Notes under the pieces: model-generated
What the model saw: only the letters and a program-made list of their open reading frames with translations
What the model was told of the DNA's origin: nothing
The model's database searches: none
Made by a program: the position numbers and the translations under genes
Source of the DNA: Gammaproteobacteria bacterium
GTDB taxonomy: Bacteria; Pseudomonadota; Gammaproteobacteria; Ga0077536
DNA length: 64,000 bases
Direction: 5' to 3'
NCBI GenBank assembly: GCA_963662545.2
Contig: CAXXLL010000003.1
Location: forward strand, 2,336,001 to 2,400,000
Shown here: in pieces, positions 2,079 through 42,471 of the stretch
Layout: the number at the start of each line of letters is the position of its first letter
Position numbering within the stretch: the first letter of the stretch is position 1

Positions 2079-2606
2079 TGAAACTTTGTACCTTGTCATA
2101 ACAGCGTCGCTACGCAACGCCGTTCAACTGATTGGATTCGCAAACGAAGGATCGTTTGCTCACCCCTGCGGGGCGCCTGCGCTTCGCTGCGGCGTCCAAC
2201 TTCGCGTTTCGAAGTTGTCGAGTCAGCCCCATTCGACCACTCTGGCACCTCTCCTGAAATTTTAGGTGCTAATAAACCAGCGCTGCTCCGCAACGCCGTT
2301 CAACTGATTGGATTCGCAAACGAAGGATCGTTTGCTCACCCCTGCGGGGCGCCTGCGCTCCGCTGCGGCGTCCAACTTCGCGTTTCGAAGTTGTCGAGTC
2401 AGCCCCATTCGACCACTCTGGCACCTCTCCTGAAATTTTATGTGCTAATAAACCAGCGCCGCTACGCAACGCCGTTCAACTGATTCGATTCGCAAACGAA
2501 GGATCGTTTGCTCACCCCTGCGGGGCGCCTGCGCTCCGCTGCGGCGTCCAACTTCGCGTTTCGAAGTTGTCGAGTCAGCCCCATTCGACCACTCTGGCAC
2601 CTCTCC
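2079..2606 (-). repeat. Tandem array of three 176-bp units, each a 5' half of tRNA-Ser with an 84-bp insertion in the anticodon loop
   Basis: tRNA 5' ends recur at 2078, 2254, 2430, 2606 (period 176); units near-identical. Confidence 0.95.
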
Positions 2607-2699
2607 TGAAAACCTTGTGCATTTCTTAAGGTTCTCTTCCCCCGCATTCTGCGAAATGCATGTGGCGTCCCCTTATTGGGACGAGCTGTTGCGCTTTAA

Positions 2700-2713
2700 G
2701 GGCGCGCAGTATA
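2700..2713 (-). promoter_or_regulatory. Probable stable-RNA promoter (-10 and discriminator) for the tRNA-Ser locus
   Basis: TATACT followed by GC-rich GCGCGCCC on the minus strand; no good -35 seen. Confidence 0.45.
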
Positions 2714-2952
2714 TCGCATGACACCGTCGTGACTTGGCCACCGTCGCTGTAGCGCTCACGCCAGTTCCTTCAGCACCCATTTTAAGAACATAACCGCCAG
2801 TGATTTCGGCCAGCTGTCGACGAATTCGATCTCCCGAATCTTCTTATAGGGCGCGACTCATTCGGCTTAGGACGCTCCAGTATATTATGCGGCTGATCCG
2901 TTGGTGTGATTCGACCATAGCCTAATATCGCCTGGAGCCAACTTTCAACTGC

Positions 2953-4479
2953 ATGAAACCGGCGGCGCGCGGCCTTGTCACACTATCGTTTGGAACCATT
3001 CTTGTGAATTTTCATCCTTCTATGCCTATGAGCTATCACTCATTCTCTCTCCCGGGTCAATCACGCCTGATACGGGCCACCATTGCGTTGCTGGTATGTC
3101 AGATATTGGGATCCTGCACGGCTCCGCCATCGACGGTGGAAGCGGTTCGCGCGGTGGGTGAACTACGGATTGCCACGCTCAATACGGGAACGATTTATTT
3201 CGAAGGTCCCGACGGCTACAGCGGATTCGAACACGACTTGACACGGGCATTCGCCGAATACCTCGGCGTGGAGGCGCGCTATGTGGTCGCGAGCAGCCAC
3301 AGTGAGCTGTCCGAACTCGTCCGGCACAACAAGGCGCACCTGGCCGCCGCTTTGATGCCGATTGGCAATGACCAGGTGAAAGGCCTGTCGTTCGGGCCGT
3401 CCTACGCGACCTTGCGACAAACCGTGATCTACCGCCGCAGCGATCGCCGGCCCGAAAGTATCGAAGACCTGCGCGGGAAATCCATTGCGGCACCCGGCGG
3501 ACGTGGCGCGCGCGCAGTGCTCGAACAGGAGCTTCCTGCCAGCGCGGGCGTTCAATGGACGATACGCGACGACCTTTCGATCGACGACCTGCTGGACCTC
3601 GTCGATCGGAACGAGATCGACTTCGCCGTCGTACCGGCCGGTGAATTCGCAGCCGCGCGTCTCTATTACCCGGAAACGCGTGAGGCCTTCGCCATCGGCG
3701 CACCGCAGGCCGTGGGTTGGCTTTATCATCGCGGTCCCGAAAATAGCCTGTGGACGGCGCAACTCGAATTCCTGAACGCCGTGCGCGGCAATGGAGAGCT
3801 CAAGATCCTGCGCGATCGGTACTTCGGACACATTGAGAAATTTGACTATGCTGAAGCGCGGGCGTTTCTGCGGCACTACGACGAAAGGCTGCCCAAATAT
3901 CGCCGCGCTTTCATCGATACCGGGGCGGAATACGCTGTCGACTGGCTGCTGCTGGCCGCTATGAGCTATCAGGAATCGCACTGGCGCGCAGATGCGAAAT
4001 CGCCGACCGGCGTGCGCGGCCTGATGATGTTGACCAAGCGTACGGCGCGCGCCTTGTCCGTCGACCGCCTCGATCCGATTGAAAGCATCCGCGGCGGCAC
4101 CGAATACCTTGCCGATCTCCGCTCCCGTCTACCCGGACGCATCGCCGAGCCCGATAAATCCTGGTTTGCGCTGGCCGCCTACAACGTCGGGCTCGGACAT
4201 CTGGAAGACGCCCGCGTGTTCACTGAGCAGGCGGGTCTGAATCCGGATCGATGGGCCGAGGTCCGTCAGTACCTGCCGAAACTGTCGAACAAGTCCTGGG
4301 CAAACAAAGCGCGGCACGGTTACGCACGCGGATACCAAGCGGTGCATTTTGTGCAAAACATCCGCCGCTACCACGACGTGCTGCGTTGGCTGGAGAGCGC
4401 GCCCGACGATGAGCCCGAAGCGGCCAGGCCCCCGTCTACCCTGTTCGCACCGATGTTACCCCGCGGGCCGGGAGTCTGA
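2953..4479 (+). CDS. mltF: Membrane-bound lytic murein transglycosylase F
   Basis: N-terminal SBP_bac_3-like domain plus SLT motifs LAAMSYQESHW, GVRGLMML, ALAAYNVG; true start may be slightly downstream. Confidence 0.92.
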   Translation: MKPAARGLVTLSFGTILVNFHPSMPMSYHSFSLPGQSRLIRATIALLVCQILGSCTAPPSTVEAVRAVGELRIATLNTGTIYFEGPDGYSGFEHDLTRAFAEYLGVEARYVVASSHSELSELVRHNKAHLAAALMPIGNDQVKGLSFGPSYATLRQTVIYRRSDRRPESIEDLRGKSIAAPGGRGARAVLEQELPASAGVQWTIRDDLSIDDLLDLVDRNEIDFAVVPAGEFAAARLYYPETREAFAIGAPQAVGWLYHRGPENSLWTAQLEFLNAVRGNGELKILRDRYFGHIEKFDYAEARAFLRHYDERLPKYRRAFIDTGAEYAVDWLLLAAMSYQESHWRADAKSPTGVRGLMMLTKRTARALSVDRLDPIESIRGGTEYLADLRSRLPGRIAEPDKSWFALAAYNVGLGHLEDARVFTEQAGLNPDRWAEVRQYLPKLSNKSWANKARHGYARGYQAVHFVQNIRRYHDVLRWLESAPDDEPEAARPPSTLFAPMLPRGPGV

Positions 4480-5700
4480 ATCCCGCGCCCGCGCAAGCGT
4501 GGTGGGATCGAGTTTTCTTTCGAGTTTTTCGAGCGCCTTCTGAGCACTGTCGTATCCTTCCGCAGCCGCGCGCCGGAACCACCGATACGCCTGAACGGGG
4601 TCTTTGTTCGCGCCCTTCCCCTTGAGATGACACACACCGACGCTGTAGGCCGCAGGTAGATGACCGTCGTCGGCTGCGCGTTTGAACCAGCGATACGCGG
4701 TGCGTTGGGATTCGGGCTCGGCCATGACAATGAAGCGGCGGGCGAGCCGGTACTGTGCATCGGCATGCCCCGCGCTTGCTGCGGCCTCGAGCCAGCGCCG
4801 TGCCGCCGGTTCGTCCGCGGCAATCTCGTCGCCTTTCGACAAGAGCTTGCTCAATTGGTACTGCGCTTTGGTATAGCCGGCGTGGGCTGATTTCTCGAGC
4901 CAGGCGAGCGCTTGCGCCGTGTCTTTCTCGACGCCGAGTCCGCGCCGATAAAGCGATGCCAGCGTGAACTGGGCCTTGGCCAGACCCTGCTCCGCCGCCG
5001 CCTCGATCCATTGCGCTGCCTCGACGTCATCTTGCTCCGCGGCATCGCCCCCGGCGAGCAGCAGTCCAAGGTTGTACTGCGCCTTGGCATAACCGCGCTC
5101 GGCAGCGCACCGGTACCAGTGCAGCGCGGCCGTCGGATCCCGATCGACACCGCGTCCTTCCGCCAAAGCGCGTCCGAGGTTGAGCTGCGCCCGCGCATAG
5201 CCCTGCTCCGCGGCAAGTTCGAACAAAGCGACCGCCGCCGCCTCATCCGTTTCCACGCCCTTACCGTGCCGCAGGCACATCGCAAGGTTGTAACGGCCTG
5301 CAGCGCTGCCGCCCGCCGCGGCGCGGCGATACCATCCGAGCGCGCGAGCCATGTCGACGGTGACCTCCAAGCCCCGCTGGTAACACCAGCCGAGCAAGGC
5401 CTCGGAATCGGGATGTCCGATCTCGGCCACCCGGATCAGCGCTGCAAAAGCGGCGCTCGCGTCGCCGCCTTCCACACCGCCGGCAAGATAGACGGTGACA
5501 GCGCGAAAAGCCGCCTGCGGGTGCCCCGCCTCGGCCGCCTGCAAATACCAGCCGAAGGCGACGCCGGCATCGCGCGTGACCGACCAGCCCTTGGCGAAGC
5601 ATTCGCCCAGTTGATAGCTGGCCTGAACGTCTCCGCCCCCGGCCGCCTCCTGCAGTCGCGCGATCGCTTTGTCGTCTATGTGTTTGGGTGCCGGCATCAC
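4456..5700 (-). CDS. Sel1-like repeat protein
   Basis: About ten AAEQG.A.AQYNLG...G.GV..D repeats. Confidence 0.9.
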   Translation of the reverse strand: MMPAPKHIDDKAIARLQEAAGGGDVQASYQLGECFAKGWSVTRDAGVAFGWYLQAAEAGHPQAAFRAVTVYLAGGVEGGDASAAFAALIRVAEIGHPDSEALLGWCYQRGLEVTVDMARALGWYRRAAAGGSAAGRYNLAMCLRHGKGVETDEAAAVALFELAAEQGYARAQLNLGRALAEGRGVDRDPTAALHWYRCAAERGYAKAQYNLGLLLAGGDAAEQDDVEAAQWIEAAAEQGLAKAQFTLASLYRRGLGVEKDTAQALAWLEKSAHAGYTKAQYQLSKLLSKGDEIAADEPAARRWLEAAASAGHADAQYRLARRFIVMAEPESQRTAYRWFKRAADDGHLPAAYSVGVCHLKGKGANKDPVQAYRWFRRAAAEGYDSAQKALEKLERKLDPTTLARARDSDSRPAG

Positions 5701-5847
5701 ATCGGTCGAACGTTCACGAATCCCCTGAACGGGTCACCTGCCCGACCATCAATCGGGTCGAGTCTTTCATCGACCCAATTATGCGGCAATGAAAGACCTG
5801 ACCCCAACAATGCTCAAGGCGGTCGGCGGTGGGCCGATAGACCCCTT

Positions 5848-6735
5848 ATGACCACGAGCGCAAATGCCCGGGCACCGGAACGATCGCCCGCCGCGAGACT
5901 CGTCGACGGCATGGTCGACCTCGTACCGCTACCGCAAGCATACGTACGCCTCCGCGAACTCGTCGATGATCCCAATACCCGCCTCAGCGAATTCGGCGAG
6001 ATCGTCGCGAGCGATCCGGCATTGACGGGCCGCCTCCTGCGTCTCGCCAACAGCGCCTATATGGGGCTTGTTACGCCGGTCGAGTCGATCGAGCATGCTG
6101 TGCGCGTGATTGGCATGACCCAACTCCACGATATCGCGCTCGCGACCTCCGCCATCGGATCGCTGTCCAAGCTCCGGGCGGATCTGTTCGACATCTACGA
6201 TTTCTGGCGTCTGGGCATTTATTGTGCGGTGTGCTCGCGACTGCTCGCCGTGCACTGCGGGCTACCCTCGCCCCAGCGTTCGTTCGTCTCCGGGCTCATG
6301 CACAATATCGGCACGTTGATCTTTGCGCACGAAATGCCCGAAGCCTTCGCTGAATGTCGCGTCCGGGCGACGGCGATAGAGCGGCCCTATTATGAATTAC
6401 AGCTGGAGATGTTCGGCTTCGATTATGCGGAAGTCGGCGCGGAGCTCATGGGGCATTGGAATTTGCCGGGCGCCTTGATCGAGCCGGTAAAGCTCCATAC
6501 TTCGGCCATCGCGAACCTCGACCCCGACCTGCGGCCGGGCGCGGCCGTGCTGCAGATTGCAGCGACCACCGCCCGCGCAGCCCTGTGGGAGTCCAGGGAG
6601 AGCGAACCGGTACCGAATTACGACGCCGAAGCCATCGCGTTTACGCAGATGGACGCGGAGCATATCGAAAAAATGATGACCGAGGCCGATGAGGAGGTCA
6701 TCGAATCCGTCGCGATATTGATGCAGCAGCCGTGA
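5848..6735 (+). CDS. HDOD domain protein
   Basis: LPQAY, DPALTGRLLRLANSAY, GLMHNIG, EVGAELMGHWNLP; ATG 5848 preferred over the long ORF overlapping Sel1. Confidence 0.88.
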   Translation: MTTSANARAPERSPAARLVDGMVDLVPLPQAYVRLRELVDDPNTRLSEFGEIVASDPALTGRLLRLANSAYMGLVTPVESIEHAVRVIGMTQLHDIALATSAIGSLSKLRADLFDIYDFWRLGIYCAVCSRLLAVHCGLPSPQRSFVSGLMHNIGTLIFAHEMPEAFAECRVRATAIERPYYELQLEMFGFDYAEVGAELMGHWNLPGALIEPVKLHTSAIANLDPDLRPGAAVLQIAATTARAALWESRESEPVPNYDAEAIAFTQMDAEHIEKMMTEADEEVIESVAILMQQP

Positions 6736-6795
6736 AGGCGCGCCGTTAACCCGACTATGTCACCAGCGTTCGTCGCGAGGCGGCTCAAGGGCGCG

Positions 6796-8598
6796 TCAGT
6801 CCGGCTCGACCTTGAGGCTGGCGTAGCTGCCGGGCGCTGGCTCGATCACATCTAACCCGCCGTCCCCCGGCACCCGGGCGGGCACCTGATCACCGCCGTG
6901 CCCCGCGATCCACTCAGCCCATCGGCCCCACCATGTTTCTTCGTGGAATTCGGCTTGTTCCAGCCATTCTTCCGCGCTCAACCCCTTGATGTCGGGTCCG
7001 GTGTAATGGCCGTATTGACGTGCTCCCGGCGGATTGATGATGCCGGCGATGTGGCCGGCCTTGCTGAGGATGAATTCCATATCGCCGCTGAAGAGTCGCG
7101 CGCCCGCATAAGTCGATTTCCATGGGGCGATGTGATCCTCGGTCGCCGAGACAAAACAACTCGGCACGTCGACGTCGTGCAAATTGATCGGCGTACCGTC
7201 GATTTTCATTCCACCCGGTTTGCAGAAGACGTTTTCAAGATACATCTTGCGCAGGTAGGTGCTGTGCATACGCGCTGGCATGCGCGTTGAATCCGCGTTC
7301 CAATACAGCAGGTCGAATGCCATCGGCTGCTTGCCGAGCAGGTAATTATTGACGACGAACGACCAGATCAAGTCGTTCGCGCGTAGCATGTTGAAGGTCG
7401 ACGCCATCTCCGCGCCGTCGAGATAGCCTCGTTCGTTCATCATGCTCTCGACGTTCTCGAGTTGTTCCTCGTCAATGAACACGCCGAGGTCGCCGGGTTC
7501 AGTGAAATCCAGCATTGAGCAGAAATAGGTGGCTGCGTGAATGCGGTCATCGCCCTTTGCTTTCATATACGCGAGCATACCGCCAAGCAGGGTGCCGCCC
7601 AGGCAGTAACCTATGGCATTGACCGATTTCTCGCCGACCGCCTGCTCGATCGCGTCGAGCGCCGCCAACGGACCTTCACCTACGTAGTCGTCGAAATCCT
7701 TTTCGGCCAGGCGCTCGTCGGGGTTGACCCATGAAACGACGAACACCGTGAGCCCCTGTTCGAGCGCCCACTTAATAAAGGAATTCTTCTGGCCCAGGTC
7801 GAGCACGTAATACTTGTTGATCCAGGGCGGTACGATCAATAAAGGACGCCGATAGACGGTATCCGTCGTCGGTTCGTATTGGATGAGTTGTATTAATTCG
7901 TTTTGAAAGACGATTTTGCCCGGCGTGATCGCGAGGTTCTCGCCCAGTTTGAAAGCGTTCGAATCTACCATCTTGGTGCACAGACGGCCGGTTGCGGGGT
8001 CGATGTCGGCCAGGAAATTCTTGAGGCCGTCGACGAGGTTGCGCCCGCCCGATTCGACCGTTGCGTGCAGCACCTCCGGGTTGGTCAGCACGAAATTGGT
8101 CGGCGCCATCGCGTCGATGTACTGGTTGGTGTAGAACTCGATCTTTTTCTTCGTCTTGTCGTCGAGGCCCTCGGCTCCGGCCACGACCGACTGCATGACC
8201 CTGGCCGTCGCGAGGTAGGTTTGTTTGACGTAATCGAAGAAGGGATTCTTATCCCAGTCCTCGGCTTTGAACCGTCGGTCGTTGCGCCCGGCCTCGACCA
8301 CGGGTTCCGCCTCAGCGCCGAGCAGGCGTTGCGCGGTGGACTGCCAAATCTGCATGTAGGTATGCCAGGCATTGAACTGCGCTTCGAGCAGGGCTGCGGG
8401 ATCGCGCGCCAAATCTTTGGTAAACGAGGCGAATGCCTGCAGGATGCCGAGCGGATCCATCGCTTTCAGATCGTGGGAGGAATGCGAATCAAAAAATTTC
8501 TGCATCAAGACCTGCGATTGGGCGCTGACGTTGGCGAGGGCCTCGGTGACCTCCTGCGGACTGGGCAGCGGTCCGGGGTACGGCATCTTATCGGTCAT
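6796..8598 (-). CDS. phaC: Class I poly(3-hydroxyalkanoate) synthase
   Basis: PPWINKYYVLDL, lipase box GYCLGG, DLLYWNAD, DHIAPW, GHIAGIINPP. Confidence 0.96.
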   Translation of the reverse strand: MTDKMPYPGPLPSPQEVTEALANVSAQSQVLMQKFFDSHSSHDLKAMDPLGILQAFASFTKDLARDPAALLEAQFNAWHTYMQIWQSTAQRLLGAEAEPVVEAGRNDRRFKAEDWDKNPFFDYVKQTYLATARVMQSVVAGAEGLDDKTKKKIEFYTNQYIDAMAPTNFVLTNPEVLHATVESGGRNLVDGLKNFLADIDPATGRLCTKMVDSNAFKLGENLAITPGKIVFQNELIQLIQYEPTTDTVYRRPLLIVPPWINKYYVLDLGQKNSFIKWALEQGLTVFVVSWVNPDERLAEKDFDDYVGEGPLAALDAIEQAVGEKSVNAIGYCLGGTLLGGMLAYMKAKGDDRIHAATYFCSMLDFTEPGDLGVFIDEEQLENVESMMNERGYLDGAEMASTFNMLRANDLIWSFVVNNYLLGKQPMAFDLLYWNADSTRMPARMHSTYLRKMYLENVFCKPGGMKIDGTPINLHDVDVPSCFVSATEDHIAPWKSTYAGARLFSGDMEFILSKAGHIAGIINPPGARQYGHYTGPDIKGLSAEEWLEQAEFHEETWWGRWAEWIAGHGGDQVPARVPGDGGLDVIEPAPGSYASLKVEPD

Positions 8599-8631
8599 TT
8601 TTATTCAAGTAATTCACGGATATAGTTGAAA

Positions 8632-8674
8632 TGTTGCATTGCAGCAATCTAGCGCCGCAATGTCGGCTTGTCAA
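8632..8674 (-). promoter_or_regulatory. Sigma70 promoter of phaC with adjacent TGC-rich operator
   Basis: TTGACA (8674-8669), 17 bp, TAGATT (8651-8646); TGTTGCATTGCAGCA at 8632-8646. Confidence 0.65.
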
Positions 8675-8688
8675 GTTGCGGCGCCGCT

Positions 8689-10095: not shown

Positions 10096-10297
10096 CGTCC
10101 ACTCCTTTCGCGCTGCAGATAATGTGATCGTACCCGCAGGCTGCGCTTTTTATTGGCTTTGAGCATAAGGGATTCGTTGCACTTTCGTCCGGCGGCATCA
10201 TTTCACAAAATAACGGCTCGTGCCCATGTGAAATGGTCACCAGTTGTCGACCGCGAAAATCGTCGCGGTCTGTACCCATCCATAAACGTCAATATTT

Positions 10298-10390
10298 CTC
10301 TCGCCAAGGTGCAAAGACGCCAAGATAGCAGCGAGTATAATTTCAATAACAATTACTCGTCACTTTGCGACCTTTGCGTGTTAGCGAGAG
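10298..10390. repeat. Degenerate palindromic intergenic element with GCAAAG/CTTTGC motifs
   Basis: CTCTCGCCAAGGTGCAAAGACGCCAAG ... CTTTGCGACCTTTGCGTGTTAGCGAGAG around an AT-rich inner inverted repeat. Confidence 0.55.
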
Positions 10391-10433
10391 TTATGCTTTC
10401 TGGCTGGACAGTAGCCAGCGTCAACTGCTCGCC

Positions 10434-12250: not shown

Positions 12251-12401
12251 GGGTGTTTCCCTTTGTCGTTCATCGTTTTCTGCGATTTAGACATTGCGCC
12301 GCCCGCGAGCGCGGTGCCGAGACGCTATGCGTGCCTTATGAATACTATAGAATATGTAAAGGAGAACAGCGTCAATTAGTGATGCCTTAGGATCACATCA
12401 G

Positions 12402-16618: not shown

Positions 16619-16619
16619 T

Positions 16620-16783: not shown

Positions 16784-18085
16784 ATGCGACTAGCCGGTTG
16801 GGGACGGTACCCGTCAAGCGAAGTGCGGGTTACCGCGATCAGGACACGGGACGATCTCGCGCGCACCTTGCGGCAGGCAAACGGTCCCTGCATCGCGCGC
16901 GGCATGGGGCGCAGCTACGGTGATTCAAGCCTGGCGCCGCACGTTATCGACTTGAGGCGGCACGATCATTTCCTGAACTTCGATTCGGATCGGGGCACCA
17001 TACGCTGCGGTGCCGGCGCGACCCTTGCCGCTCTTTTGGACATCGTTGTGCCGCGCGGCTGGTTCCTCCCCGTCACTCCGGGCACCGGTTTCGTCAGCGT
17101 CGGTGGCGCCATCGCCAGCGACGTGCACGGTAAGAATCATCACCGCGACGGCTCTTTCGCGGACTTCGTCGAAAGTCTTCTTCTGATGATGCCGAATGGT
17201 GAACTCGTCACCTGCTCAAGTGAAGAAAATGCCGAGCTGTTCCATGCGGCGGCAGGCGGCATGGGGCTCAGCGGCATCATCGTCGACGCCGTCCTGAAAC
17301 TCAGACGCATCCGGAGTAGCTTTGTTGACGAGCGTATCGTCAAGACCAGCGACCTCCACGACACCCTCGCCTGTCTCGACGAACATGGCGAAGCGACCTA
17401 CGTCGTCGCGTGGCTCGACGCGAACAAGCGCGGCGCGGCGCGCGGCCGCGCGCTCGTTATGATCGGCGAACACGCTCAAGACGATGACTTCGAGGTGCAC
17501 CGCAAGCCGCACGCGCGAATTCCCTTCGACCTGCCCTCGATGTGTTTGAACAGCCTCGTCATGCGGCTTTTCAACGCGCTCTACTACGAGCGCATTCGTA
17601 CTCGCATGACCACGCGTAGGACTCATTACGAACCGTATTTCTACCCGCTCGATCGTCTCCGCGACTGGAATCGGCTGTACGGTCGGGCGGGCCTTCTGCA
17701 GCACCAATCCGTGGTCCCGCGCACATCGGCTAGAGAAGCCATTGAGGAGCTGCTCTCTTGCGTTGCCACCAGCGGTCTTGGTTCGCCGCTGTCGGTATTA
17801 AAGGCCCTTGGTGAGGGCAATCAAAATTATCTTTCCTTTCCCCGTGCAGGCTATACCTTGACGATGGACTTCAAGCGCAGCGACACGGCCTTGGCGTTGA
17901 TGGGGCGGCTCGACGACATCGTGCTCGCACACGGCGGGCGGATGTATCTGGCCAAGGACGCCTGCATGAGCGAATCGACCTTCAAGCGCAGCTACCCGGC
18001 CTGGGAAGTTTTTCAAACCGTACGCGAACGACACGGCGCACTGGGTCGGTTCAGTTCACTGCAGGCACAGCGTCTGGGTCTATAG
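16784..18085 (+). CDS. DprE1-like FAD-binding oxidoreductase
   Basis: GWGRYP, ARGMGRSYGD, PVTPGT, GGAIASDVHGKNHH, GGRMYLAKD. Confidence 0.9.
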   Translation: MRLAGWGRYPSSEVRVTAIRTRDDLARTLRQANGPCIARGMGRSYGDSSLAPHVIDLRRHDHFLNFDSDRGTIRCGAGATLAALLDIVVPRGWFLPVTPGTGFVSVGGAIASDVHGKNHHRDGSFADFVESLLLMMPNGELVTCSSEENAELFHAAAGGMGLSGIIVDAVLKLRRIRSSFVDERIVKTSDLHDTLACLDEHGEATYVVAWLDANKRGAARGRALVMIGEHAQDDDFEVHRKPHARIPFDLPSMCLNSLVMRLFNALYYERIRTRMTTRRTHYEPYFYPLDRLRDWNRLYGRAGLLQHQSVVPRTSAREAIEELLSCVATSGLGSPLSVLKALGEGNQNYLSFPRAGYTLTMDFKRSDTALALMGRLDDIVLAHGGRMYLAKDACMSESTFKRSYPAWEVFQTVRERHGALGRFSSLQAQRLGL

Positions 18086-18315
18086 TGCGCTGTCCCGTAA
18101 TAAGCCTTCATAATTCGCTGGTCCTCGTGCCGCGCTACGGCGTTGCTCGTCGTTGCCGTATTGCGGATACCATCCATGGCATCCGCCCTTCGGGCCCGCC
18201 TGCGGCGGTCCAAATTCGTTCCGGACGAATTTGTCCCGATACGACGCCTCCTCGCGCCTTGTATCGCACCACGAGTCCTGCGCGATTTATTGAAGTTTAT
18301 TACGGGACAGCACAC
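18085..18315. mobile_element. MITE (231 bp) with terminal inverted repeats and TA duplication, carrying a nested hairpin element
   Basis: TA-GTGCGCTGTCCCGTAATAA ... TTATTACGGGACAGCACAC-TA; removal restores TAG-C-ATG between the flanking genes. Confidence 0.8.
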
Positions 18316-18319
18316 TAGC

Positions 18320-29995: not shown

Positions 29996-30811
29996 TAGGG
30001 GACATTCATGTTTTTCCCATTTTTTTGCTCGACTTACGACTTACGGGGTCGCCCCCGCGGCCGAATACTGGCTTCCAAACCAAGTTCTTCTGCGACTTTG
30101 AGCCGCCATGCTTGGTGGCCGAATGGTCGGCCACGCACCACACATTCGCGAATCGCCTCAACCTCTTCGGTGGTCTGAGGCGCGTTTACAAATTCAATCC
30201 AATCTGCGGCGCAAGCTTCGGGAGCCATCTCGCTCAACAAACTCCGTCGCACTGTCATTCCTGCGCTCAGGCTGGACCACGGCCAAGATTCTGCCGTGTT
30301 GCTCAAACGTGCTCGAAGAGGATTACGCTCAACGTATCGCAAAACTGTCAGTAGATGTCGATCCTGTTCAATGGGAAACGCTTTGAATCGCCCCTGCCAT
30401 ATTCGGCCATCTGTCCCATACTTTTTGTGATATCTCCTTACATGAGCCGTCATAAGCCGTTGCATCCATCGACTGAGATCCCCGTCGCCGAATGGGTACA
30501 AGATGAAATGAAAATGGTTCGGCATGAGACAGTAGCCAAGCACGCGCATCGGTACCTTGGCGCTCGACCGTGCCATGAGGTCTACAAAAGCCTGATAATC
30601 ACTTGGATGATGAAATACGCGCGCGCGGCGGTTACCACGGTTTATAACGTGGTAGCAGGTCCCTCCGACCGAAGCGCGTGCCGTCCGTGGCATCTCGCAA
30701 GCTTACCAAAAACCTGCTCAGATTTTAGGGGACAATCATCATTTTCATGCGCCTAACCTTCGAAAAGATGAATGTCCCCATTAATACGGCTTCGAAAAGA
30801 TGAATGTCCCC
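29996..30811. mobile_element. RAYT locus bounded by GGGGACATTCAT-type REP-like repeats
   Basis: TAGGGGACATTCATG at 29996, TAGGGGACAATCATC at 30726, inverted GAAAAGATGAATGTCCCC ending at 30779 and 30811. Confidence 0.75.
30034..30693 (-). CDS. REP-associated (Y1/HUH) tyrosine transposase
   Basis: MPR..R, YHVINRGN, YCLMPNHFH (HUH), WQGRFK, RYVERNPLRA, WPWSS, RPRGRPRK tail. Confidence 0.9.
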   Translation of the reverse strand: MPRTARASVGGTCYHVINRGNRRARVFHHPSDYQAFVDLMARSSAKVPMRVLGYCLMPNHFHFILYPFGDGDLSRWMQRLMTAHVRRYHKKYGTDGRIWQGRFKAFPIEQDRHLLTVLRYVERNPLRARLSNTAESWPWSSLSAGMTVRRSLLSEMAPEACAADWIEFVNAPQTTEEVEAIRECVVRGRPFGHQAWRLKVAEELGLEASIRPRGRPRKS

Positions 30812-36161: not shown

Positions 36162-36162
36162 C

Positions 36163-36597
36163 CTACATCTGCGTGGTGAGGGTCTCGACATCATCGACCG
36201 TACCCTCCACGGCAACGCGTACCCACATCAGGCCGGTCTCGCCGCCGGTTAAAGCATTACCGTCGCTGTCCGCGTCGTCGACGTCGAAGAGCGCGAGATA
36301 GACCAGCCGCCGATCACTGCTGCCCGCTGAGTCCGAGTAACTGGTGGGAGTGAGGTAGGAACCGGCCGCGAGCGCCTCGGCGTCGAGGACGTCGAACGGC
36401 AGGGCCAGCACTTTCTCGAGTTTGGCCTGCATGGCCTGTTGGCGCGTCACCGCTCGAGCATGCACGCCGCCGGCCATGATGCCGCTGCTCAAAGCGTCGA
36501 TGGCTGGTACCAGGCTCACCGCCACCAGCACGGTGGCGACGAGGACCTCGACATAAGAGAATCCAGCGGTGTGCGCGACTCGCTTTCTGATTCTCAT
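36163..36597 (-). CDS. Minor pilin (PilV/MshD-like)
   Basis: AGFSYVEVLVATVLV prepilin motif. Confidence 0.8.
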   Translation of the reverse strand: MRIRKRVAHTAGFSYVEVLVATVLVAVSLVPAIDALSSGIMAGGVHARAVTRQQAMQAKLEKVLALPFDVLDAEALAAGSYLTPTSYSDSAGSSDRRLVYLALFDVDDADSDGNALTGGETGLMWVRVAVEGTVDDVETLTTQM

Positions 36598-37130
36598 TGA
36601 ATGGTCACGCGGCCGGTGAAGCCATGCAGGGTCACAACGCGGGCCAGGGGCCCCAGGGTCAAGGTCACATCGAACTGCTCGAGGAGCACGGTGCGCGGGT
36701 CGACACACCAGGGCGTGCCGTTGGCATCGAAATAAATGTCGCCGGGTTGGTTGCAGGTGCCGCGAAACGTCGTGGACTGGTTCACGGTGTCTACAGCCAC
36801 AAACGGTTCGGTGTTCAGATCGATGTCGTAGAGCTTTTTGCTCGCCGGTTGATAAACGTCAAAGATCAAGGTCGCGGGTGTCACCGACATGTCGGGACGC
36901 ATCACACGAATCCGCTCCTGGCCGAACTGGTGTCGAAAACCGCGTGGAATACCGAAGCGGATAGCCTCGCTGCGCGCGAAGCGCATGGCATCGGCGATCT
37001 CGAGCGCCGCTAGATCGAGACGCGAAGGGTCAGTCGAAGAGAAGTTCGGGATTACCGATAATGCGATGATCCCGATGATTGCCGTGACCAGGGTGATCTC
37101 GAGCAGCGTGAAACCGCGTTGTCTGACCAT
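36594..37130 (-). CDS. Minor pilin (FimT/GspH/MshC-like)
   Basis: RGFTLLEI, AMRFARSEAI, IYFDANGTP, TGRVTI. Confidence 0.85.
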   Translation of the reverse strand: MVRQRGFTLLEITLVTAIIGIIALSVIPNFSSTDPSRLDLAALEIADAMRFARSEAIRFGIPRGFRHQFGQERIRVMRPDMSVTPATLIFDVYQPASKKLYDIDLNTEPFVAVDTVNQSTTFRGTCNQPGDIYFDANGTPWCVDPRTVLLEQFDVTLTLGPLARVVTLHGFTGRVTIQ

Positions 37131-37175
37131 CGTGCATGCGCCGGAGCCCGCAGGTCGTCGCCGCGCGGACGGGGC

Positions 37176-37727
37176 CTAGCGGTCGTCGTAGCCCGAGTGA
37201 TCGGCGATGAACTGGCCGGTGAGCGTGTCGTACTTCCAGCCGCCGTTGGTCACCGATGAGGTCATGCCGAGCGCGCCCGCGGTGGAAATCAACACGGTGC
37301 TCACCGTCGTCATCGGATCGTCGGGCAAGGTGGCTTTTTTCAAATAAGGGCCGTATTTGAAAGCCGCGTCCGACTTCGTGCAGCTTTCACCGTTGACGTC
37401 GGTGTACTTCGACATCTGGTCGAGGAAGGCCTGCTCGGTCTGCAATGCACCGGTACCGGTCGCACCGCTCGGTCCGGCGGCACAGGCCGCGCCGATCGAG
37501 GTCACGTTGCCCGGATATTCACTGTGCTGCTGATAGTACAGATCAACGGACGAGCGGACGTTGGCGAGCGAAGTATCCAGGGACGAAAGCTTCGCGTCGT
37601 CGGTCGCGGCGCTGAACTGCGGCACCACGATGGCGGCGAGAATCGCGAGGATAATCACGACGATCAGGAGCTCCACCAAGGTAAAGCCCCGTTGAATACG
37701 GGATTTGACGTGTTGGAGATCGTTCAT
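37176..37727 (-). CDS. Major pilin/pseudopilin
   Basis: QRGFTLVELLIVVIILAILAAIVVPQF, VDLYYQQH, YGPYLK. Confidence 0.9.
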   Translation of the reverse strand: MNDLQHVKSRIQRGFTLVELLIVVIILAILAAIVVPQFSAATDDAKLSSLDTSLANVRSSVDLYYQQHSEYPGNVTSIGAACAAGPSGATGTGALQTEQAFLDQMSKYTDVNGESCTKSDAAFKYGPYLKKATLPDDPMTTVSTVLISTAGALGMTSSVTNGGWKYDTLTGQFIADHSGYDDR

Positions 37728-37846
37728 TTTGCTGCTCCGTTTTCGGATCTTTCCGCTGAATGGCTGAAGGTGTTAGCGGCAGCTCCCGTGGGCTCCTTTA
37801 GCGCTATTTCGTGGTGCGCGGGGCGCGATTCGCCGGCGAAGCCCTC

Positions 37847-37891
37847 CTAACGGTCGTCGTAGTCCTGGTGGTCGGCTATGAACTGACCCGT
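37847..37891 (-). pseudogene. 3' remnant of a second pilin paralog
   Basis: Encodes TGQFIADHQDYDDR-stop versus TGQFIADHSGYDDR-stop of the neighbouring pilin. Confidence 0.8.
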
Positions 37892-38828
37892 TGGGATACT
37901 TCGGTTCATAGGTCTTGAGGAACAGCTCGAACGCCTTCTCGGCGTCGGCCTTTGTCGCGGCCTGCCAGATCGCGTGCAGGGCTTGCTTGGCTTTGGCCTG
38001 TGCTGACTTCGGTAGGCAGTTCAGCACGTTCATCGTCTTGTGCATCCAGCAGCGTTGCTGGCGGGTCTCACCGTAGACTTCCTCCAGTGCGGCCCAGAAG
38101 CCCATGGCACCGTCCCCGATCGCCAGCTTGGGAATATTCATCCCGCGTGACTTCAATTTCAGCAACACCTCGCGCCAGCTCTGCGTGGACTCCCGCACAC
38201 CATCCTCCATCGCCAAAAAACGCTTCTCGCCTCGCTCATTGACGCCGATCACCACCAACGCACACAGCTTCGTGTGCTCCGCCCGCAGGCCACTGTAGAC
38301 ACCGTCCGCCCACACCTACACCCAGCGGTCTTGGTCCAATCGCCCCTCGCACCAGTCGCGGTATTCTTGCGCCCACACCTGCTTCAAGCGCGACACTGTG
38401 CTCGCCGACAGGCCCTTCGCCTGCGGCCCCAACAAAACTTCCAGCGCAGCGCCCATTTCGCCACTGGAAACGCCCTTCAAATACAGCCACGGCACGGCCG
38501 CCTCCAAGGTTCTTGTCTTGCGCACATACGGCGGCACCAGCGCTGAACGGAAGGTCACCGGCTCGCCGAGCTTCGAACGAACCTTCGGGATCCTCACCGT
38601 CACCGGCCCCAAGCCCGTCTGCAACTGGCGTTCCGGCAAATAGCCGTTGCGAACCACACCTGCTTTGTCGTCCACCGTGCGATGTCCTGAATACTGCGCC
38701 ATATATTCTGCCAGCTCGATTTCAACCGCTCGTTCAATCAGAGCCCGAGCACCGTTTCTCAAGACCTCCGTCAACGGATCTGGTATTCCTTCTCGACCTG
38801 ATAATTCAACAACGTTACTCTCTCTCAT
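37892..38828 (-). pseudogene. IS256 family transposase, amber stop at 38316-38318 and 3' truncation
   Basis: RNGY..R...T.LG....IPK.R, WLYLKGVSS, WV*VWADGV, IGDGAMGFW, QQRCWMHK; similarity stops at YEPKYP. Confidence 0.9.
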
Positions 38829-38931
38829 GGTGGCGTATCCTCTTTGGTTGGCTTGCTGCTTGGTAACAACATTTCAACCAGATACGCCGCCTTTATTCAA
38901 CTCGCTCAAACACCAGATTCAGTTATAACTC
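37892..38931 (-). mobile_element. Truncated IS256 family element
   Basis: Probable left end GAGTTATAACTGAATCTGGTG at 38931; no right end seen. Confidence 0.75.
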
Positions 38932-39305
38932 GTTGAAAACACGCATGGATACCTTTGCCTGAAAAACGACTTCTCAGCAAAAATTACTGCGGTAACGTCC
39001 TTGCCACTCGGGAATGAGTAGACCAGCCCCTGCAATCGCCGATGACAATCGATTGAACGGCCAACTTGCCAACAAAACCGCCTAAATTTATTCACTCATG
39101 CAATATGCAGGCTAGTGGAGTTAGGCGCAGGAAAAGACATCAATTCGATAAACGTCGACGATCCAATCGTTGGATTTATAATTGGTAACAAGGGGCTGAT
39201 GTATAACTTGACACTAGAGGGATCTAAGATGTCCAAGATCGATCCTTAGCGGCATTAAATTCTTTCCCGAATAGTTATTGTGCACTGTTCGATAGGGTAT
39301 CGAAA

Positions 39306-39890
39306 TCAGTCCTTCCAGAATTCCCACCATGAACGTTCACTCGCTCTTTCTACCGCTCGTCCGCTTCTTTGCTCTGCTTTTTGAACCTTATCCTTACGCC
39401 GGTTGCTCGGTTCACTTTCGGTGACTAAGGTTCGGCTTACGTTCTTTATAGTCCGATCAAGGACATCGGTAATTTCCTGGGTCGCAATATCGAGCAAGAC
39501 GATCTCGCCGTCAATTTCTGCGCGCTCATAGCCTTCTCTGACCGGTGGTAAACGAGATTCCAGATAAGGCGAAAGCCCTTTTTTCGCTATGCCCGGAGGT
39601 AGGGTGCCACCACGGCTCAATTTCTTGGCAATACCGGGTGGGAGGCCCTTGGGGTTCCCCTTGCCTTTATGCTTTTTTCCTTTCTTGCCCGGGCGCATCG
39701 ATTCTTGATCATGGTCATCACCGTCAATCGAACCATATTTGCTTTGATAGTAGTCGCGAATGACTTGCCGTTCGACTTCAGAAAAAACGGCCTTGCCGAA
39801 TTCCTTGAGACTCTCGCTTACCCCATCTGCGCTTGCTGCCGTCCCAATTAAAATGCAGGAAACCAGCAGGGAACCTAATAGTGTTTTCAT
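39306..39890 (-). CDS. Secreted protein with LPPGIAKK repeats (RcnB-like)
   Basis: Signal peptide, basic linker, LPPGIAKKLSRGGTLPPGIAKK. Confidence 0.75.
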   Translation of the reverse strand: MKTLLGSLLVSCILIGTAASADGVSESLKEFGKAVFSEVERQVIRDYYQSKYGSIDGDDHDQESMRPGKKGKKHKGKGNPKGLPPGIAKKLSRGGTLPPGIAKKGLSPYLESRLPPVREGYERAEIDGEIVLLDIATQEITDVLDRTIKNVSRTLVTESEPSNRRKDKVQKAEQRSGRAVERASERSWWEFWKD

Positions 39891-40187
39891 AATTGTTGCA
39901 CCGAACAGTTTCAAGCTTTCTTCTCCTAACGACTACCCGTCAGGGACGCGAGTAACAAAGTCACTGTGGCGGTAATTGTAGACCGTCGCTGTCAGTTTCG
40001 TCTTCACCTGGCTGATAGGAAGCTGTGGCCCCAGGCTGTTCGATAGCCTGTGAGAGCTGACCGCACCGTGTGCTCGGAAAACCCGGGGTAGAGCACACCA
40101 CCGCTTGATCAGTCGGTTATGTCCTGTCCCGGGCTAAAGTTTTTCGCGATTCGGACGCATTCAAGGAAATGTACCTAATGGCACCCT

Positions 40188-40499
40188 ATGGCTGCCGGGG
40201 AGTCGCATAAAGTGAAATCAGACGTGACGGAGCCACGCTATCGCGGTTACGACAGCGAGACGGAATTATCCTTGAACGGCTGCATTTTTCGGGCTGCAGA
40301 TCACCTTTGTTTTGTGTCGCCTGGTGAGACCGGATTTGGCTGGAATAAGGCGGAAATCTGCGATTTGAGCGACAGGATCAGGGCCAGCATCGAATTCGAC
40401 CCCTCCATGCTGGATGCTTTGCCGAATGCCGTCCGAGCCAAACTATTCGAAGGTCTGAATCTTTCCCCGGCCCCTCGACCAACAACTTCAGACTCGTAA
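40188..40499 (+). CDS. Hypothetical protein
   Basis: 103-aa ORF filling an otherwise empty gap; no motif recognised. Confidence 0.4.
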   Translation: MAAGESHKVKSDVTEPRYRGYDSETELSLNGCIFRAADHLCFVSPGETGFGWNKAEICDLSDRIRASIEFDPSMLDALPNAVRAKLFEGLNLSPAPRPTTSDS

Positions 40500-40501
40500 C
40501 G

Positions 40502-41266
40502 CTAAGCCATTTCGTCTAATTGGCGTGGACTGGTCTCCTGATCGGTGGTGACAGGCAGCGACGATAGCGATTCGTATTCACGAAGGAACTTCTCGAACGC
40601 GACACCGTTTCCGCGTGGAGCTGACAGGGCCGGGAGTATCTCGCTTGCGCCCGTCAGCGCTTCTGCGAATTCGTCCAGCAGGGACATGACGGTGTCTTGA
40701 AGGTCGCTTAGTAGTGACATGGAGAGTGTGGTAGCGCTGCTTTGGTCCAAGGTGGCTTCGAGACCTTCGTAGAACGTAGCGAAGCCTGTTTGCAGGTTGT
40801 CGAGGTATTCTCCGGTGTCACCGCCAGTGCCAGCCGTATAGGCAGCAAGCGCATCCTCTACGTTGCTGTCGAACGCTGCTTCTAATTCTCTAATGGCAGT
40901 GACTGTTGAATCTTCAAGGCCCTCAGTAGCGGCTAGCGTATCAACCCGTTCCGTGACCGCGTTGCGTAACTGCTCGGTACCTGCACTTATCTGCTCCTCG
41001 ACGGCGGCCGTTGAGAGCGATGTCAGTTCATCGTTGAACACCACGCGTAGCCTCACGTCCGCAACGCCTCTGAAATGGCCTTCTTGCAGAAGTTTGAGAA
41101 CGCCCTTTCCCGCAGGGTTGGGCTCGATCGAAGCGGCTTGTTCGTCCGCCGGCTCGACAACGGCTTTTCCACCGCTCATGCCATCAGCTGGGACCGGCGC
41201 TGATGGTGGGCGGTGGTGTGGACCAACTACCGAGATGACGTTTTGTCCGATGCCTCCAACTAGCAC
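40502..41266 (-). CDS. Hypothetical acidic helical protein
   Basis: 254-aa ORF with protein-like composition; family not recognised. Confidence 0.6.
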   Translation of the reverse strand: MLVGGIGQNVISVVGPHHRPPSAPVPADGMSGGKAVVEPADEQAASIEPNPAGKGVLKLLQEGHFRGVADVRLRVVFNDELTSLSTAAVEEQISAGTEQLRNAVTERVDTLAATEGLEDSTVTAIRELEAAFDSNVEDALAAYTAGTGGDTGEYLDNLQTGFATFYEGLEATLDQSSATTLSMSLLSDLQDTVMSLLDEFAEALTGASEILPALSAPRGNGVAFEKFLREYESLSSLPVTTDQETSPRQLDEMA

Positions 41267-41656
41267 TGTACATCTACCTTATAGCGTAACGATGCATGAT
41301 CGGTATATCGACTATGCGTCGGAGATCTTGAGGTCGCAAGTTGTCAACAATTGCGCCGATGAGTGCGCGTTGCAGGCGCGAAGCGGTACCCGCACAGCCG
41401 GAGACCCCAACCTCTGCATTATCAGAATACACCTTACCGTTACCGTCTATGCCCGATGAGGTCAGGAAGCGAACGCGCGCGTTACTAGAAATATGTCCGC
41501 TGATGTCGTACCTGATCGGTAGATAGCAAACGCGTCGGTGCTCGTCAGCAGTGCGCTGGTGATCGGCGGCTATTGCCCGGCACCTCGGTTCGAATGGTCG
41601 AGGGTTCGCTTGCCTGATATCTTTGGGCCTAAGTCCGGCTTAAAGACCAAGGTACC

Positions 41657-41779
41657 ATGGCGAAAGTCCATCGCAACTCACTCCAGCCAGGCCATCGCGT
41701 CCACTGGTACGAGATCATCGAAATCCTGGGCCAGGGCGGATTTGGCATTACCTACCTCGCGCTGGATACCAATCTGTGA
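41657..41779 (+). pseudogene. N-terminal stub of a Ser/Thr protein kinase
   Basis: MAKVHRNSLQPGHRVHWYEIIEILGQGGFGITYLALDTNL-stop (Gly-rich loop); not in the ORF track. Confidence 0.8.
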
Positions 41780-41832
41780 GAACGAGTCCAAATTATTACA
41801 GTTTAGGGTACCGAACGGGGGCCTAATTTAGT

Positions 41833-42010
41833 TGGCGCGCCCGGAGGGATTGATTCGCAAACAAAGTATTGTTTGCTCACCCCCTGCGGGGGCGCCTGCG
41901 CTTCGCTGCGGCGTCCAATCTCGCTTCGCGAGATTGTCGAACCGAGGACTTCAAACCAAAGCCTCCCACCACGCCAACTAAATTGGGCCCCTAACGGAGC
42001 CCAATTTAGT
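41833..42010 (-). repeat. 178-bp unit downstream of tRNA-Arg with duplicated tRNA 3' end interrupted by an 86-bp hairpin element
   Basis: TGGCGCGCCCGGAGGGATT at 41833 and 42011; element 41852-41937 splits GATT/CGAACC. Confidence 0.88.
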
Positions 42011-42015
42011 TGGCG
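41972..42015 (-). terminator. Hairpin overlapping the tRNA-Arg 3' end (terminator or processing structure)
   Basis: Perfect 17-bp inverted repeat CGCCAACTAAATTGGGC / GCCCAATTTAGTTGGCG. Confidence 0.55.
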
Positions 42016-42087
42016 CGCCCGGAGGGATTCGAACCCCCGACCCCCTAGTTCGTAGCCAGGTACTCTATCCAACTGAGCTACGGGCGC
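42011..42087 (-). tRNA. tRNA-Arg(ACG)
   Basis: GCGCCCGTAGCTCAGTTGGATAGAG, CCTGG-CTACGAA-CTAGG, GGTTCGAATCC, CCA; 77 nt. Confidence 0.96.
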
Positions 42088-42121
42088 GGTTTTGCTCGCG
42101 CAGATCGACGCGAGGGCGGGG

Positions 42122-42150
42122 ATTATCGGAGCACCGATCGAGGCTGTCAA
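42122..42150 (-). promoter_or_regulatory. Sigma70 promoter of tRNA-Arg
   Basis: TTGACA, 17 bp, GATAAT, then GC-rich CCCCGCCC discriminator. Confidence 0.8.
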
Positions 42151-42159
42151 ATCATCCGA

Positions 42160-42471
42160 CGGAGGGATTATTCCGCACATCCATGTGCTCCACCCTCGCT
42201 AAGGCTCAGGCCAGCCTTCGGCTGTTCAAATTTGTTCCCGACAAATTTGTGATTCGCATACAAAGGATTGTTTGCTCACCCCTACGGGGCGCCTACACGT
42301 CGCCGCGGCGTCCACAAAATCGTCTGGAACGATTTTGAACATCACGTGCCAGCGTAATGGCCCGTAGGGCGAGCCACATGGACGTGGCGAGTAATCTCGC
42401 TTCGCGAGATTGTCGAACCCCCGACCCCCTAGTTCGTAGCCAGGTGCTTTATCCAGTGGCGTTACGGGCGC
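42160..42471 (-). pseudogene. Degenerate tRNA-Arg copy split in the T-loop by three tandem/nested hairpin elements
   Basis: CGGAGGGATT at 42160-42169 and CGAACCCCCGACCCCCTAGTTCGTAGCCAGG...TACGGGCGC at 42414-42471, separated by 244 bp. Confidence 0.85.

Follow-up and report, generated by a model that had tools for sequence, protein, structure and literature searches.

Escherichia coli carries 22 'tRNA-linked repeats' (TLRs) at ten loci downstream of tRNA or rRNA genes; according to a passage of PMC8144298 they share 18-19 bp with the 3' end of the gene, were noticed for the first time in 1978 and lack a known function. We analyzed 64,000 nucleotides (nt) from a Gammaproteobacteria bacterium (GTDB lineage Ga0077536; assembly GCA_963662545.2, contig CAXXLL010000003.1, positions 2,336,001 to 2,400,000), in the following called the window, with respect to eight small hairpin elements, E1 to E8. 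These represent a real, mobile, non-autonomous element and belong to a known but mechanistically unexplained family. Very probably, this mobile, non-autonomous and site-preferring element equals the core of the TLRs.

Other relatives have been described in other contexts. Sharp and Leach in 1996 and Wilson and Sharp in 2006 reportedly observed an insertion of about 70 bp at specific internal sites of the ERIC repeat; it is said to have been presented as ERIC varying in length and not as an element of its own with tRNA sequences among its targets. An earlier annotation of the window, made from its letters alone (the sequence-only reading), had stated that identity with a catalogued repeat family would count against its claims. 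Judged by sequence comparison such identity appears to exist in part, as the family includes repeats catalogued as TLR/RtT, as the spacer between T1 and T2 of rrnB (rrB) and as the ERIC insert. What may be new is that the TLRs and the ERIC insert can be read as one mobile element.

Eight elements and their insertion sites

All eight elements of 72-86 nt proposed in the sequence-only reading were confirmed at the coordinates given there by reading the sequence. E1-E3, E5 and E7 form subfamily A, and E4, E6 and E8 form subfamily B; E8 is located on the minus strand and the others on the plus strand. Each element consists of a short leader followed by three or four hairpins, which in the folds are local and not part of one element-wide stem, and the 3' hairpin ends ..TTTG-T.

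E1 (2135..2218) interrupts a partial copy of tRNA-Ser in its antisense anticodon loop, and E2 (2311..2394; 98% identity to E1 over 64 nt) and E3 (2487..2570), its tandem duplicates, occupy the same loop in further partial copies. The three are contained in a tandem array of 3.2 units of 176 bp (2042..2611; alignment and Tandem Repeats Finder, period 176, 95% matches). The array unit comprises 13 nt of tRNA-Ser from the 3' side of the anticodon loop, then the element, the 5' half of the tRNA and about 40 nt of upstream sequence, and an intact tRNA-Ser(CGA) adjoins the array (1988..2078, minus strand; ARAGORN; Rfam tRNA 54.8 bits). E1-E3 are one insertion that was amplified later. Since they share one 176-bp array, the window contains six insertion events, not the eight that the number of elements had implied.

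E4 (18163..18234) is located at the centre of a palindromic repeat resembling a MITE (miniature inverted-repeat transposable element). The host is an imperfect palindrome (18083..18317) with 36-nt arms that are 83% complementary, and it sits between genes for an FAD-binding oxidase and a short-chain dehydrogenase. The central position of E4 parallels that of the enterobacterial copies hosted by ERIC.

E5 (41852..41937) occupies an antisense T-loop. It is flanked by GGGATT on the left and CGAACC on the right, within a 19-nt copy of the 3' end of tRNA-Arg. To the left lies an orphan fragment (41818..41851, plus strand; 94% identity to 41996-42029), which consists of 15 nt of the downstream flank of tRNA-Arg and the last 19 nt of tRNA-Arg in antisense, with the T-loop end GGGATT. 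To the right, CGAACC precedes an inverted and decayed copy of the 3' end of tRNA-Arg with its flank (41938..41995, plus strand), which forms a hairpin with the 3' flank of the real tRNA. Two pairs of inverted repeats were found beside E5, i.e., 41818-41855 with 41954-41991 (79% complementary) and 41972-41991 with 41996-42015 (95%). The intact tRNA-Arg(ACG) gene (42011..42087, minus strand; ARAGORN; Rfam tRNA 64 bits) has 93.6% identity to the tRNA-Arg of a locus from a Rhodanobacteraceae metagenome-assembled genome (MAG).

E6 (42170..42250) and E7 lie head-to-tail in one T-loop of a second, decayed tRNA-Arg copy. Of this copy a left remnant CGGAGGGATT (42160..42169, plus strand; by alignment) and a right part extending from the T-loop to the 5' end in antisense (42414..42473, plus strand; 89% identity to the intact gene) are present. 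In the alignment E6 and E7 together form a single block between GGAGGGATT and CGAACCCCC of the tRNA-Arg copy, i.e., exactly between GGGATT and CGAACC, which is the same T-loop site as that occupied by E5. E7 itself is interrupted. Its left part (42251..42313) aligns with E5 and has 88% identity to E1 over 64 nt, while its right part (42393..42413; 91% identity to the end of E5) is the remainder of its terminal hairpin. Between them, inside the terminal hairpin, lies E8 (42314..42392), which aligned as a single block of 79 columns and therefore forms one clean 79-nt block within the E5-like E7.

In the window the elements are preceded by GATT or TATT and followed by C or directly by another element. 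There was no target duplication at any window junction, and removal of the element restores the host sequence. The sequence-only reading had noted an ambiguity of one nucleotide for the tRNA-Ser copies; this is present, but one T can be assigned to either side at every junction, and when the element end is read as ..TTTG the tRNA-Ser copies are likewise exact insertions. Subfamily A is found in non-homologous sites, with E1 in an anticodon loop and E5 and E7 in T-loops. Copies thus re-use sites, giving head-to-tail arrays, and enter their own kind.

A scan of the 64 kb for the terminal hairpin (CAA..TTG+T) gave nine matches, of which seven are element ends and two are chance-like. At the gathering score, Rfam yielded nothing in the window beyond its two tRNAs, and at E<=5 it added only weak matches to RF02902, one of them to E5 on the opposite strand. 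No match was found when plasmids were searched with E5 as query.

Conserved pairing, distribution and filled and empty sites

Five window copies were folded on both strands as single-stranded DNA, with 200 shuffles per fold. Each copy gave three to four hairpins, with z-scores from -3.3 to -5.7 over the ten folds, in none of which any of the 200 shuffles was as good (E1, with four hairpins, z -3.98; E4, -4.80; E5, -5.68; E6, -4.59; E8, -3.97). The differences between E1 and E5 in hairpins 1, 2, and 4 are compensated. From a MAFFT alignment of 45 subfamily-B copies, three from the window and 42 from other genomes, RNAalifold predicted four helices with 21 pairs, 11 of which had compensatory changes. 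A standard pair was present in 96.0% of the alignment cells, compared to 81.6% after shuffling and 30.6-48.5% when the partners were slid. Cells changed on both sides numbered 133, compared to 39.1 after shuffling (none of 500 shuffles reached 133) and 16-29 with slid partners. This is in agreement with the claim that the stems differ in sequence while their pairing is kept, and the structure of the element is under selection.

A covariance model, R1, was built from the same 45-copy alignment and run on the window with filters off. The seed members E8 (80.5 bits), E4 (78.5 bits) and E6 (76.0 bits) scored at 76-80 bits. R1 also recovered copies absent from the seed, i.e., E5 (27.4 bits), E1 and E2 (25.5 bits each) and E3 (26.3 bits), all at 25-27 bits with E about 1e-4. 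The left part of E7 scored 19 bits. In the rest of the window there was no other independent match below E=0.19, save a weak second match over part of E7.

Species-representative genomes were scanned with one terminal-hairpin pattern of subfamily B, which gave at least 117 loci, and R1 identified at least 110 copies in 84 sources, some of the extra copies being clustered round tRNA genes. The named taxa among the matches listed were almost all Gammaproteobacteria, with some titles giving no class. They included Enterobacterales, Alteromonadales, Xanthomonadales, Steroidobacteraceae, Methylococcales, Thiotrichales, Legionellales, Vibrio, and others; two of the matches listed bear the alphaproteobacterial name Martelella alba and have ERIC-like flanks. 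The sequence of the terminal hairpin was conserved across orders among the matches listed, which suggests recognition by a protein.

The insertion site was assessed from 109 distinct flank contexts (105 of the 110 R1 matches, those with complete ends, together with five window copies and less one duplicate). A T was found at position -2 in 83 contexts and at -1 in 73, and a C at +1 in 88. The left flank in the wider family is therefore TT and not strictly ATT as in the window. Among the 107 matches listed the T-loop-like host was the commonest named class (30), followed by ERIC-like hosts (16), 5S 3' ends (3) and D-loop-like hosts (2). The remaining 56 were classified as other, a class that takes in a second ERIC site and further repeat families. 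Altogether, copies were hosted by tRNA fragments (in the antisense T-, anticodon- or D-loop), by the 3' ends of 5S genes, by palindromic repeats including ERIC, by other copies of the element and by an IS110 gene. Loops of DNA that can form hairpins are strongly preferred, those of tRNA sequences most of all. The sequence-only reading had proposed tRNA genes as special targets; the preference for loops was found to be strong, but the targets are mostly dispensable tRNA fragments beside an intact gene and not working tRNA genes. An intact tRNA or tmRNA gene was present in 21 of 32 loci, which had been chosen by eye for tRNA-like flanks or clusters of copies; these genes were Ser, Arg, Gln, Val, Pro, Lys, Phe, Asp, and tmRNA.

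The T-loop insertions share a common layout. In 12 of 12 loci inspected, and in the window, a terminator is followed by the last approximately 19 nt of the antisense tRNA ending ..GGATT, the element, CGAACC with an inverted, decayed copy of T-arm and acceptor end, a terminator and the intact tRNA. Three abutting copies form an array in one locus (L030), and tandem arrays of element and flank were found in three others (L005, L020 and L100) besides the window. Copies located after the last 13 nt of 5S rDNA (..GCCTGGCAGTT up to the junction) were observed in Klebsiella, Scandinavium, and E. coli, at L081 1946-2028 and 2113-2189 (two tandem units), L071 431-513 and L122 335-418. In four loci of Thiotrichales-type MAGs (L009, L012, L070 and L076) the element has the same position in another host repeat family (..TGTACACTnnGGTnGTT to the left and CGCCGCnnnGCGCCTTGCTCTG to the right).

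Relatives were also found in the catalogued repeats of E. coli K-12. The spacer between T1 and T2 of rrnB after the 5S gene (rrB), which is presumably also found in common cloning vectors as the spacer of their T1T2 terminator cassette, contains a full copy by R1 (66.5 bits, E 9e-15). In tyrT/tyrV R1 matched four units at 19-24 bits; these are named RtT by Rfam and correspond to the 178-bp tyrT repeats. Two truncated copies were found in the argQZYV spacers (E 0.0014 and 0.0025). R1 did not match the metT-glnX locus of K-12, presumably also a TLR locus, so that three of the four E. coli loci tested matched.

Empty sites had been proposed in the sequence-only reading as a check on insertion, and two filled and empty pairs were identified beyond the window. 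In Pseudoalteromonas sp. 3D05 (L016) a 67-nt copy interrupts a transposase gene of the IS110 family, while another Pseudoalteromonas (L054) has a gene of the same family with 93.5% identity that lacks it. The empty site reads GGTTAC/TGGA (the slash denotes the insertion point) and the filled site GGTTAT[..]TGGA. It was also observed that the IS110-family element directly adjoins a copy of the hairpin element in both (L016 798-874 and 1997-2071; L054 657-1823), and that a second copy splits the gene in one of them.

The second pair involves ERIC. The 3' half of E6 matches enterobacterial records, and in Salmonella and E. coli O157:H7 a copy of 69-70 nt is located after GGGGATT inside ERIC (R1 66-75 bits); the ERIC-borne copy is present in 614 of 5426 complete E. 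coli genomes. The filled site GGGGAT[70 nt]TCACTC corresponds to an empty site GGGGAC/TCACTC without duplication, the empty ERIC compared being a paralogue. Junctions were exact to within 1 nt everywhere, and they leave one T, not TT, on the right. E8 in E7, the tRNA-Arg copies and the ERIC and IS110 pairs thus all agree with the claim of a precise, orientation-specific insertion that does not duplicate the target and from which the host sequence can be restored.

Possible modes of movement

The best explanation as a whole, which we regard as on balance probable, is that of a non-autonomous element of about 67-86 nt, widespread in Gammaproteobacteria, that would move as a single strand by means of a trans-acting HUH/Y1-type enzyme. 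A copy enters its target in one orientation, with TT (usually GATT) on its 5' side and C on its 3' side, without duplication. Favoured targets are exposed loops of hairpin-forming DNA, such as antisense tRNA loops, the 5S rDNA 3' end and ERIC-like palindromes at their centre. The elements would travel as folded single strands, and the enzyme, which may be IS200/IS605- or RAYT-like, would bind the similar first and last hairpins, cut and join. Because a hit in a working tRNA would be harmful, insertions in working stable-RNA genes would be lost, and the survivors would sit in partial or redundant copies beside the intact gene. This arrangement of a dispensable copy and an intact gene is what E. 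coli workers catalogued as 'tRNA-linked repeats'.

The HUH/Y1 single-strand mechanism itself, which was proposed in the sequence-only reading, is put forward here only tentatively. It is suggested by the lack of duplication, the short motif on one side only, the fixed orientation, the subterminal hairpins, the abutting arrays and the TCC loops of hairpins 1 and 4. As in IS200/IS605-type transposition, insertion is orientation-specific, 3' of a short motif, and without target-site duplication. Known target motifs of this type are 4-5 nt long; that of the element is shorter and looser. Ends derived from an autonomous TnpA-encoding insertion sequence (IS) were not found among the loci listed, for one subfamily. 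The claim that the family is non-autonomous was upheld, no internal gene being present in any of the at least 117 loci listed.

A candidate for the trans-acting enzyme is encoded in the window by a RAYT-like Y1 (HUH) transposase gene (30034..30693, minus strand; Pfam Y1_Tnp 6.2e-13). HUH and Tyr motifs are visible in its product of 219 amino acids, which scored 79.8 bits against NCBIfam REP_Tyr_transpos (cut-off 80) and 1.9e-6 against PDB 4er8 TnpArep. Four copies of GGGGACATTCAT, two per orientation, lie at 29998-30009, 30728-30739, 30768-30779 and 30800-30811 and look like a separate REP-like system; GGGGACATTCAT loosely resembles hairpin 1 of ERIC-type copies (GGGACATCCATG). Relatives of the Y1 protein on plasmids had at most 36% identity, with no link to the elements.

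Several observations weigh against single-strand movement by such an enzyme. The Y1 gene of the window is flanked by the four copies of GGGGACATTCAT (0-1 mismatch) and not by the element, and R1 had no match there. No Y1 gene borders any copy, which the sequence-only reading had proposed to check: among 928 open reading frames (ORFs), from those of the listed loci that are at least 1500 bases long, none resembled the window Y1 protein (best E 0.29). On the 3' side the cut would coincide with the foot of the terminal hairpin, and on the 5' side it would lie 0-5 nt away from hairpin 1, a spacing unlike that of IS608. The decayed inverted copy of the tRNA 3' end that recurs beside T-loop insertions is not explained by simple cut-and-paste. 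The composite of ERIC and element is polymorphic as a whole in E. coli, with K-12 lacking both at the O157 site, and the empty ERIC is, as said, paralogous. While TCC is found in the hairpin-1 loop of 93 of 107 copies and the hairpin-4 loop is alike, the TCC of hairpin 4 was fixed by the search pattern in most copies, CCN being found there in 12 of 21 non-pattern matches. Finally, there is no strand asymmetry in the stems. Helices 1-3 have 16 G.T and 18 A.C pairs, and this balance therefore marks neither strand as the active one.

TTCG loops on the element strand are frequent in hairpins 1-3 (hairpin 3, 20 of 107 copies) and correspond to CGAA on the other strand. TTCG is a very stable loop in RNA and CGAA a very stable mini-hairpin loop in DNA, and the active strand or molecule is therefore not indicated.

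Since no transposase was found in or beside the copies and the window Y1 gene is flanked by different repeats, a trans-acting HUH/Y1 enzyme is a best guess and unproven. The sequence-only reading was right in outline, the enzyme excepted.

The inverted gene remnant beside the T-loop copies could be produced by two strand switches, and it is the basis of the first alternative, which we consider unlikely: there would be no dedicated transposase, and template switching during replication, or else gene conversion, would spread the element. After stalling in the hairpin target, a polymerase would jump to a donor via microhomology (..GGATT on the left and CGAACC on the right, both of which nearly all T-loops have), copy it and return, and further switches would give partial direct and inverted duplications beside the insert. 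The layout of fragment, element, inverted copy and intact tRNA in 12 of 12 loci and the window is what two such switches would be expected to leave, and the tandem arrays of element and flank in the window and in L005, L020 and L100 point the same way, as does the fact that the T-loop flanks, belonging to the commonest host (30 of 107 matches listed), are near-identical between tRNAs. However, one subfamily occupies sites with only TT/C in common (anticodon loop, T-loop, another copy, ERIC and IS110 coding sequence), the junctions are exact everywhere to within one nucleotide, and the conservation of the terminal hairpin across orders suggests recognition by a protein.

Secondly, the element could be mainly a functional RNA module and not a parasite, i.e., a small RNA that binds Hfq or CsrA like RrA, RrB, and RrF or RtT, with conservation that reflects function. 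We find this improbable as the main explanation. It would be transcribed with tRNA or rRNA operons antisense to the element orientation, so that its loops read GGA, a CsrA-type motif. The TCC of hairpin 1 noted above (93 of 107 copies) does read GGA in the tRNA sense, the rrnB spacer contains a full copy according to R1, and Rfam holds both RtT and an Aggregatibacter small RNA of the same four-hairpin order (RF02902, 17-22 bits with a gathering score of 39.8). According to a passage of PMC8144298, rrA, rrB, and rrF, which are spacers of rrnA, rrnB, and rrnD, give rise to processed transcripts that bind Hfq and CsrA in vitro, whereas the other 19 TLRs scored below 0.01 as CsrA binders. Copies in ERIC, in other copies, in an IS110 gene and in a MITE have places and orientations unlinked to a stable-RNA operon, and wobble pairs are rare. 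Moreover, hairpin 4 of subfamily A has no TCC loop, and its hairpin 1 carries GGA on the other strand. An RNA function may be a later co-option, and this alternative is therefore not exclusive of mobility.

Anticodon and T-loops are classic crossover sites of tRNA-targeting integrases, partial tRNA copies are their usual att-site scars, and tyrosine integrases need an identical overlap of 6-8 bp. Accordingly the elements could be miniature integrative elements moved by a tyrosine integrase; this was rejected on junction anatomy and is very improbable, because at the junctions no more than 1-3 nt are common to element and target, insertion in ERIC, an IS gene or another copy does not fit, and no integrase recurred near copies when the ORFs around the loci listed were clustered, even though the sites coincide with the integrase sublocations that Williams reportedly described for tRNA genes in 2002, both window sites lie in regions with IS21 and Mutator-family remnants, and an ORF with a phage-integrase domain lies directly beyond the tRNA-Ser 3' fragment bearing an element at L021 1719-3281, resembling a genomic island border. 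Williams 2002 is cited in a passage of PMC9897764. The same clustering of ORFs gave no recurrent neighbour of any kind save unrelated ABC, LysR, and orthologous loci.

Returning to single-strand movement, a bolder and rather doubtful version of it would derive the TLRs, the rrnB spacer and the ERIC insert alike from one ancient transposon that moves as a single strand and, in some Gammaproteobacteria, does so to this day, driven in trans by a conserved, host-resident HUH/Y1 enzyme that specifically attacks the loops of stable-RNA genes. The adjacent partial direct and inverted gene copies would then be scars of replication template switches that rescued the hit gene, and some copies would have been co-opted as GGA-loop RNAs binding CsrA. 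The reading of the family as one mobile element would give a mechanism and an origin to an unexplained class of E. coli repeats, reveal a mobile element that prefers loops of tRNA and 5S genes, and explain many 'partial tRNA genes' that are not att sites of islands. It would also provide a simple substrate, two short hairpins and TT/C, with which the enzyme responsible could be sought. In annotation, copies can be told apart from tRNA pseudogenes and supposed small RNAs by means of the covariance model.

Some further features of the window were observed. A remnant IS21-type pair (Mu-transposase C domain and truncated IstB) lies near an element site at 3-1124, and a Mutator-family transposase split into two ORFs lies near another at 37773-38828. 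By eye, 41657-41779 contains the end of a short reading frame with a kinase-like glycine loop, GQGGFG, before the tRNA-Arg cluster, and may be a truncated gene. At 49830-49863, 34 nt are 82% identical to the 5' end of tRNA-Arg with its upstream flank (42072-42105), with no adjoining element.

Comparison with described repeats and mobile systems

Two classes of known elements were rejected on anatomy. The ends are not inverted repeats of each other and the target is not duplicated, which excludes a classical MITE. Integron attC sites and cassettes (G/TT boundaries, R''/R' core sites) were rejected on the single T, not TT, to the right of the junction and the local hairpins.

REP/REPIN sequences moved by RAYTs are likewise small structured extragenic repeats mobilized in trans by a single-copy Y1 protein, and a RAYT-like gene is present in the window. 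They differ in being single imperfect palindromes of 20-40 nt, often in inverted pairs, whereas the element has 70-86 nt, three to four distinct hairpins and head-to-tail arrays; furthermore, its copies do not flank the RAYT-like gene. The palindrome-associated transposable elements (PATEs), non-autonomous derivatives of IS200/IS605 mobilized by a Y1 HUH TnpA, resemble it in inserting without duplication in one orientation 3' of a short motif, in having subterminal hairpins without terminal inverted repeats and in placing new copies at the left flank of old ones. Unlike them, the element has no autonomous relative among the loci listed, its cut sites abut the hairpins, it contains the internal hairpins 2 and 3, and its target is only TT/C.

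The Aggregatibacter small RNA AaHKsRNA22 (RF02902) has four hairpins in the same order on the complementary strand in the consensus alignment, but the matches reached only 17-22 bits, compared to the gathering score of 39.8; its source paper, PMC5909427, does not mention repeats. The Rfam RtT model (RF00391) remained below threshold, with no match in the window. The literature searched, which did not cover Rudd 1999 and Wilson and Sharp 2006, contained no text that treats the family as an insertion element. Terminal-hairpin 12-mers were absent from the best-ranked 20 of 177 literature matches, which matched through 10-mers alone. A search on ERIC with 70-bp insertions returned one review without a relevant passage, that on MITEs, T-loops and tRNA genes returned nothing, and that on IS605, RAYT and tRNA returned background papers only. 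One published passage likens rtT-like elements to BIMEs.

The approximately 70-bp insert of ERIC has the terminal hairpin in common with the element, and 16 of the 107 matches listed are of the ERIC type; it has three hairpins compared to four. The TLRs are defined by position and by the shared 3' end of the gene, not as insertion elements. With respect to position, E5 is located as a TLR would be, 73 nt downstream of tRNA-Arg in the tRNA sense, while E1-E3 (upstream of tRNA-Ser), E4 and E6-E8 (in an upstream pseudo-copy) are not; the TLR definition does not extend to a copy inside another copy or a MITE, or to one that occupies an anticodon loop upstream of the gene. With respect to the 3' end, 41833-41851 is identical to 42011-42029 in 19 of 19 positions, and the same identity to the 3' end of the gene was found in 12 of 12 loci inspected. 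The TLRs adjoin a tRNA or 5S gene and end in its last 18-19 nt, just as the 19 nt to the left of E5 are the 3' end of tRNA-Arg, and both in E. coli and in the window the units are repeated in tandem with a length of about 176-178 bp.

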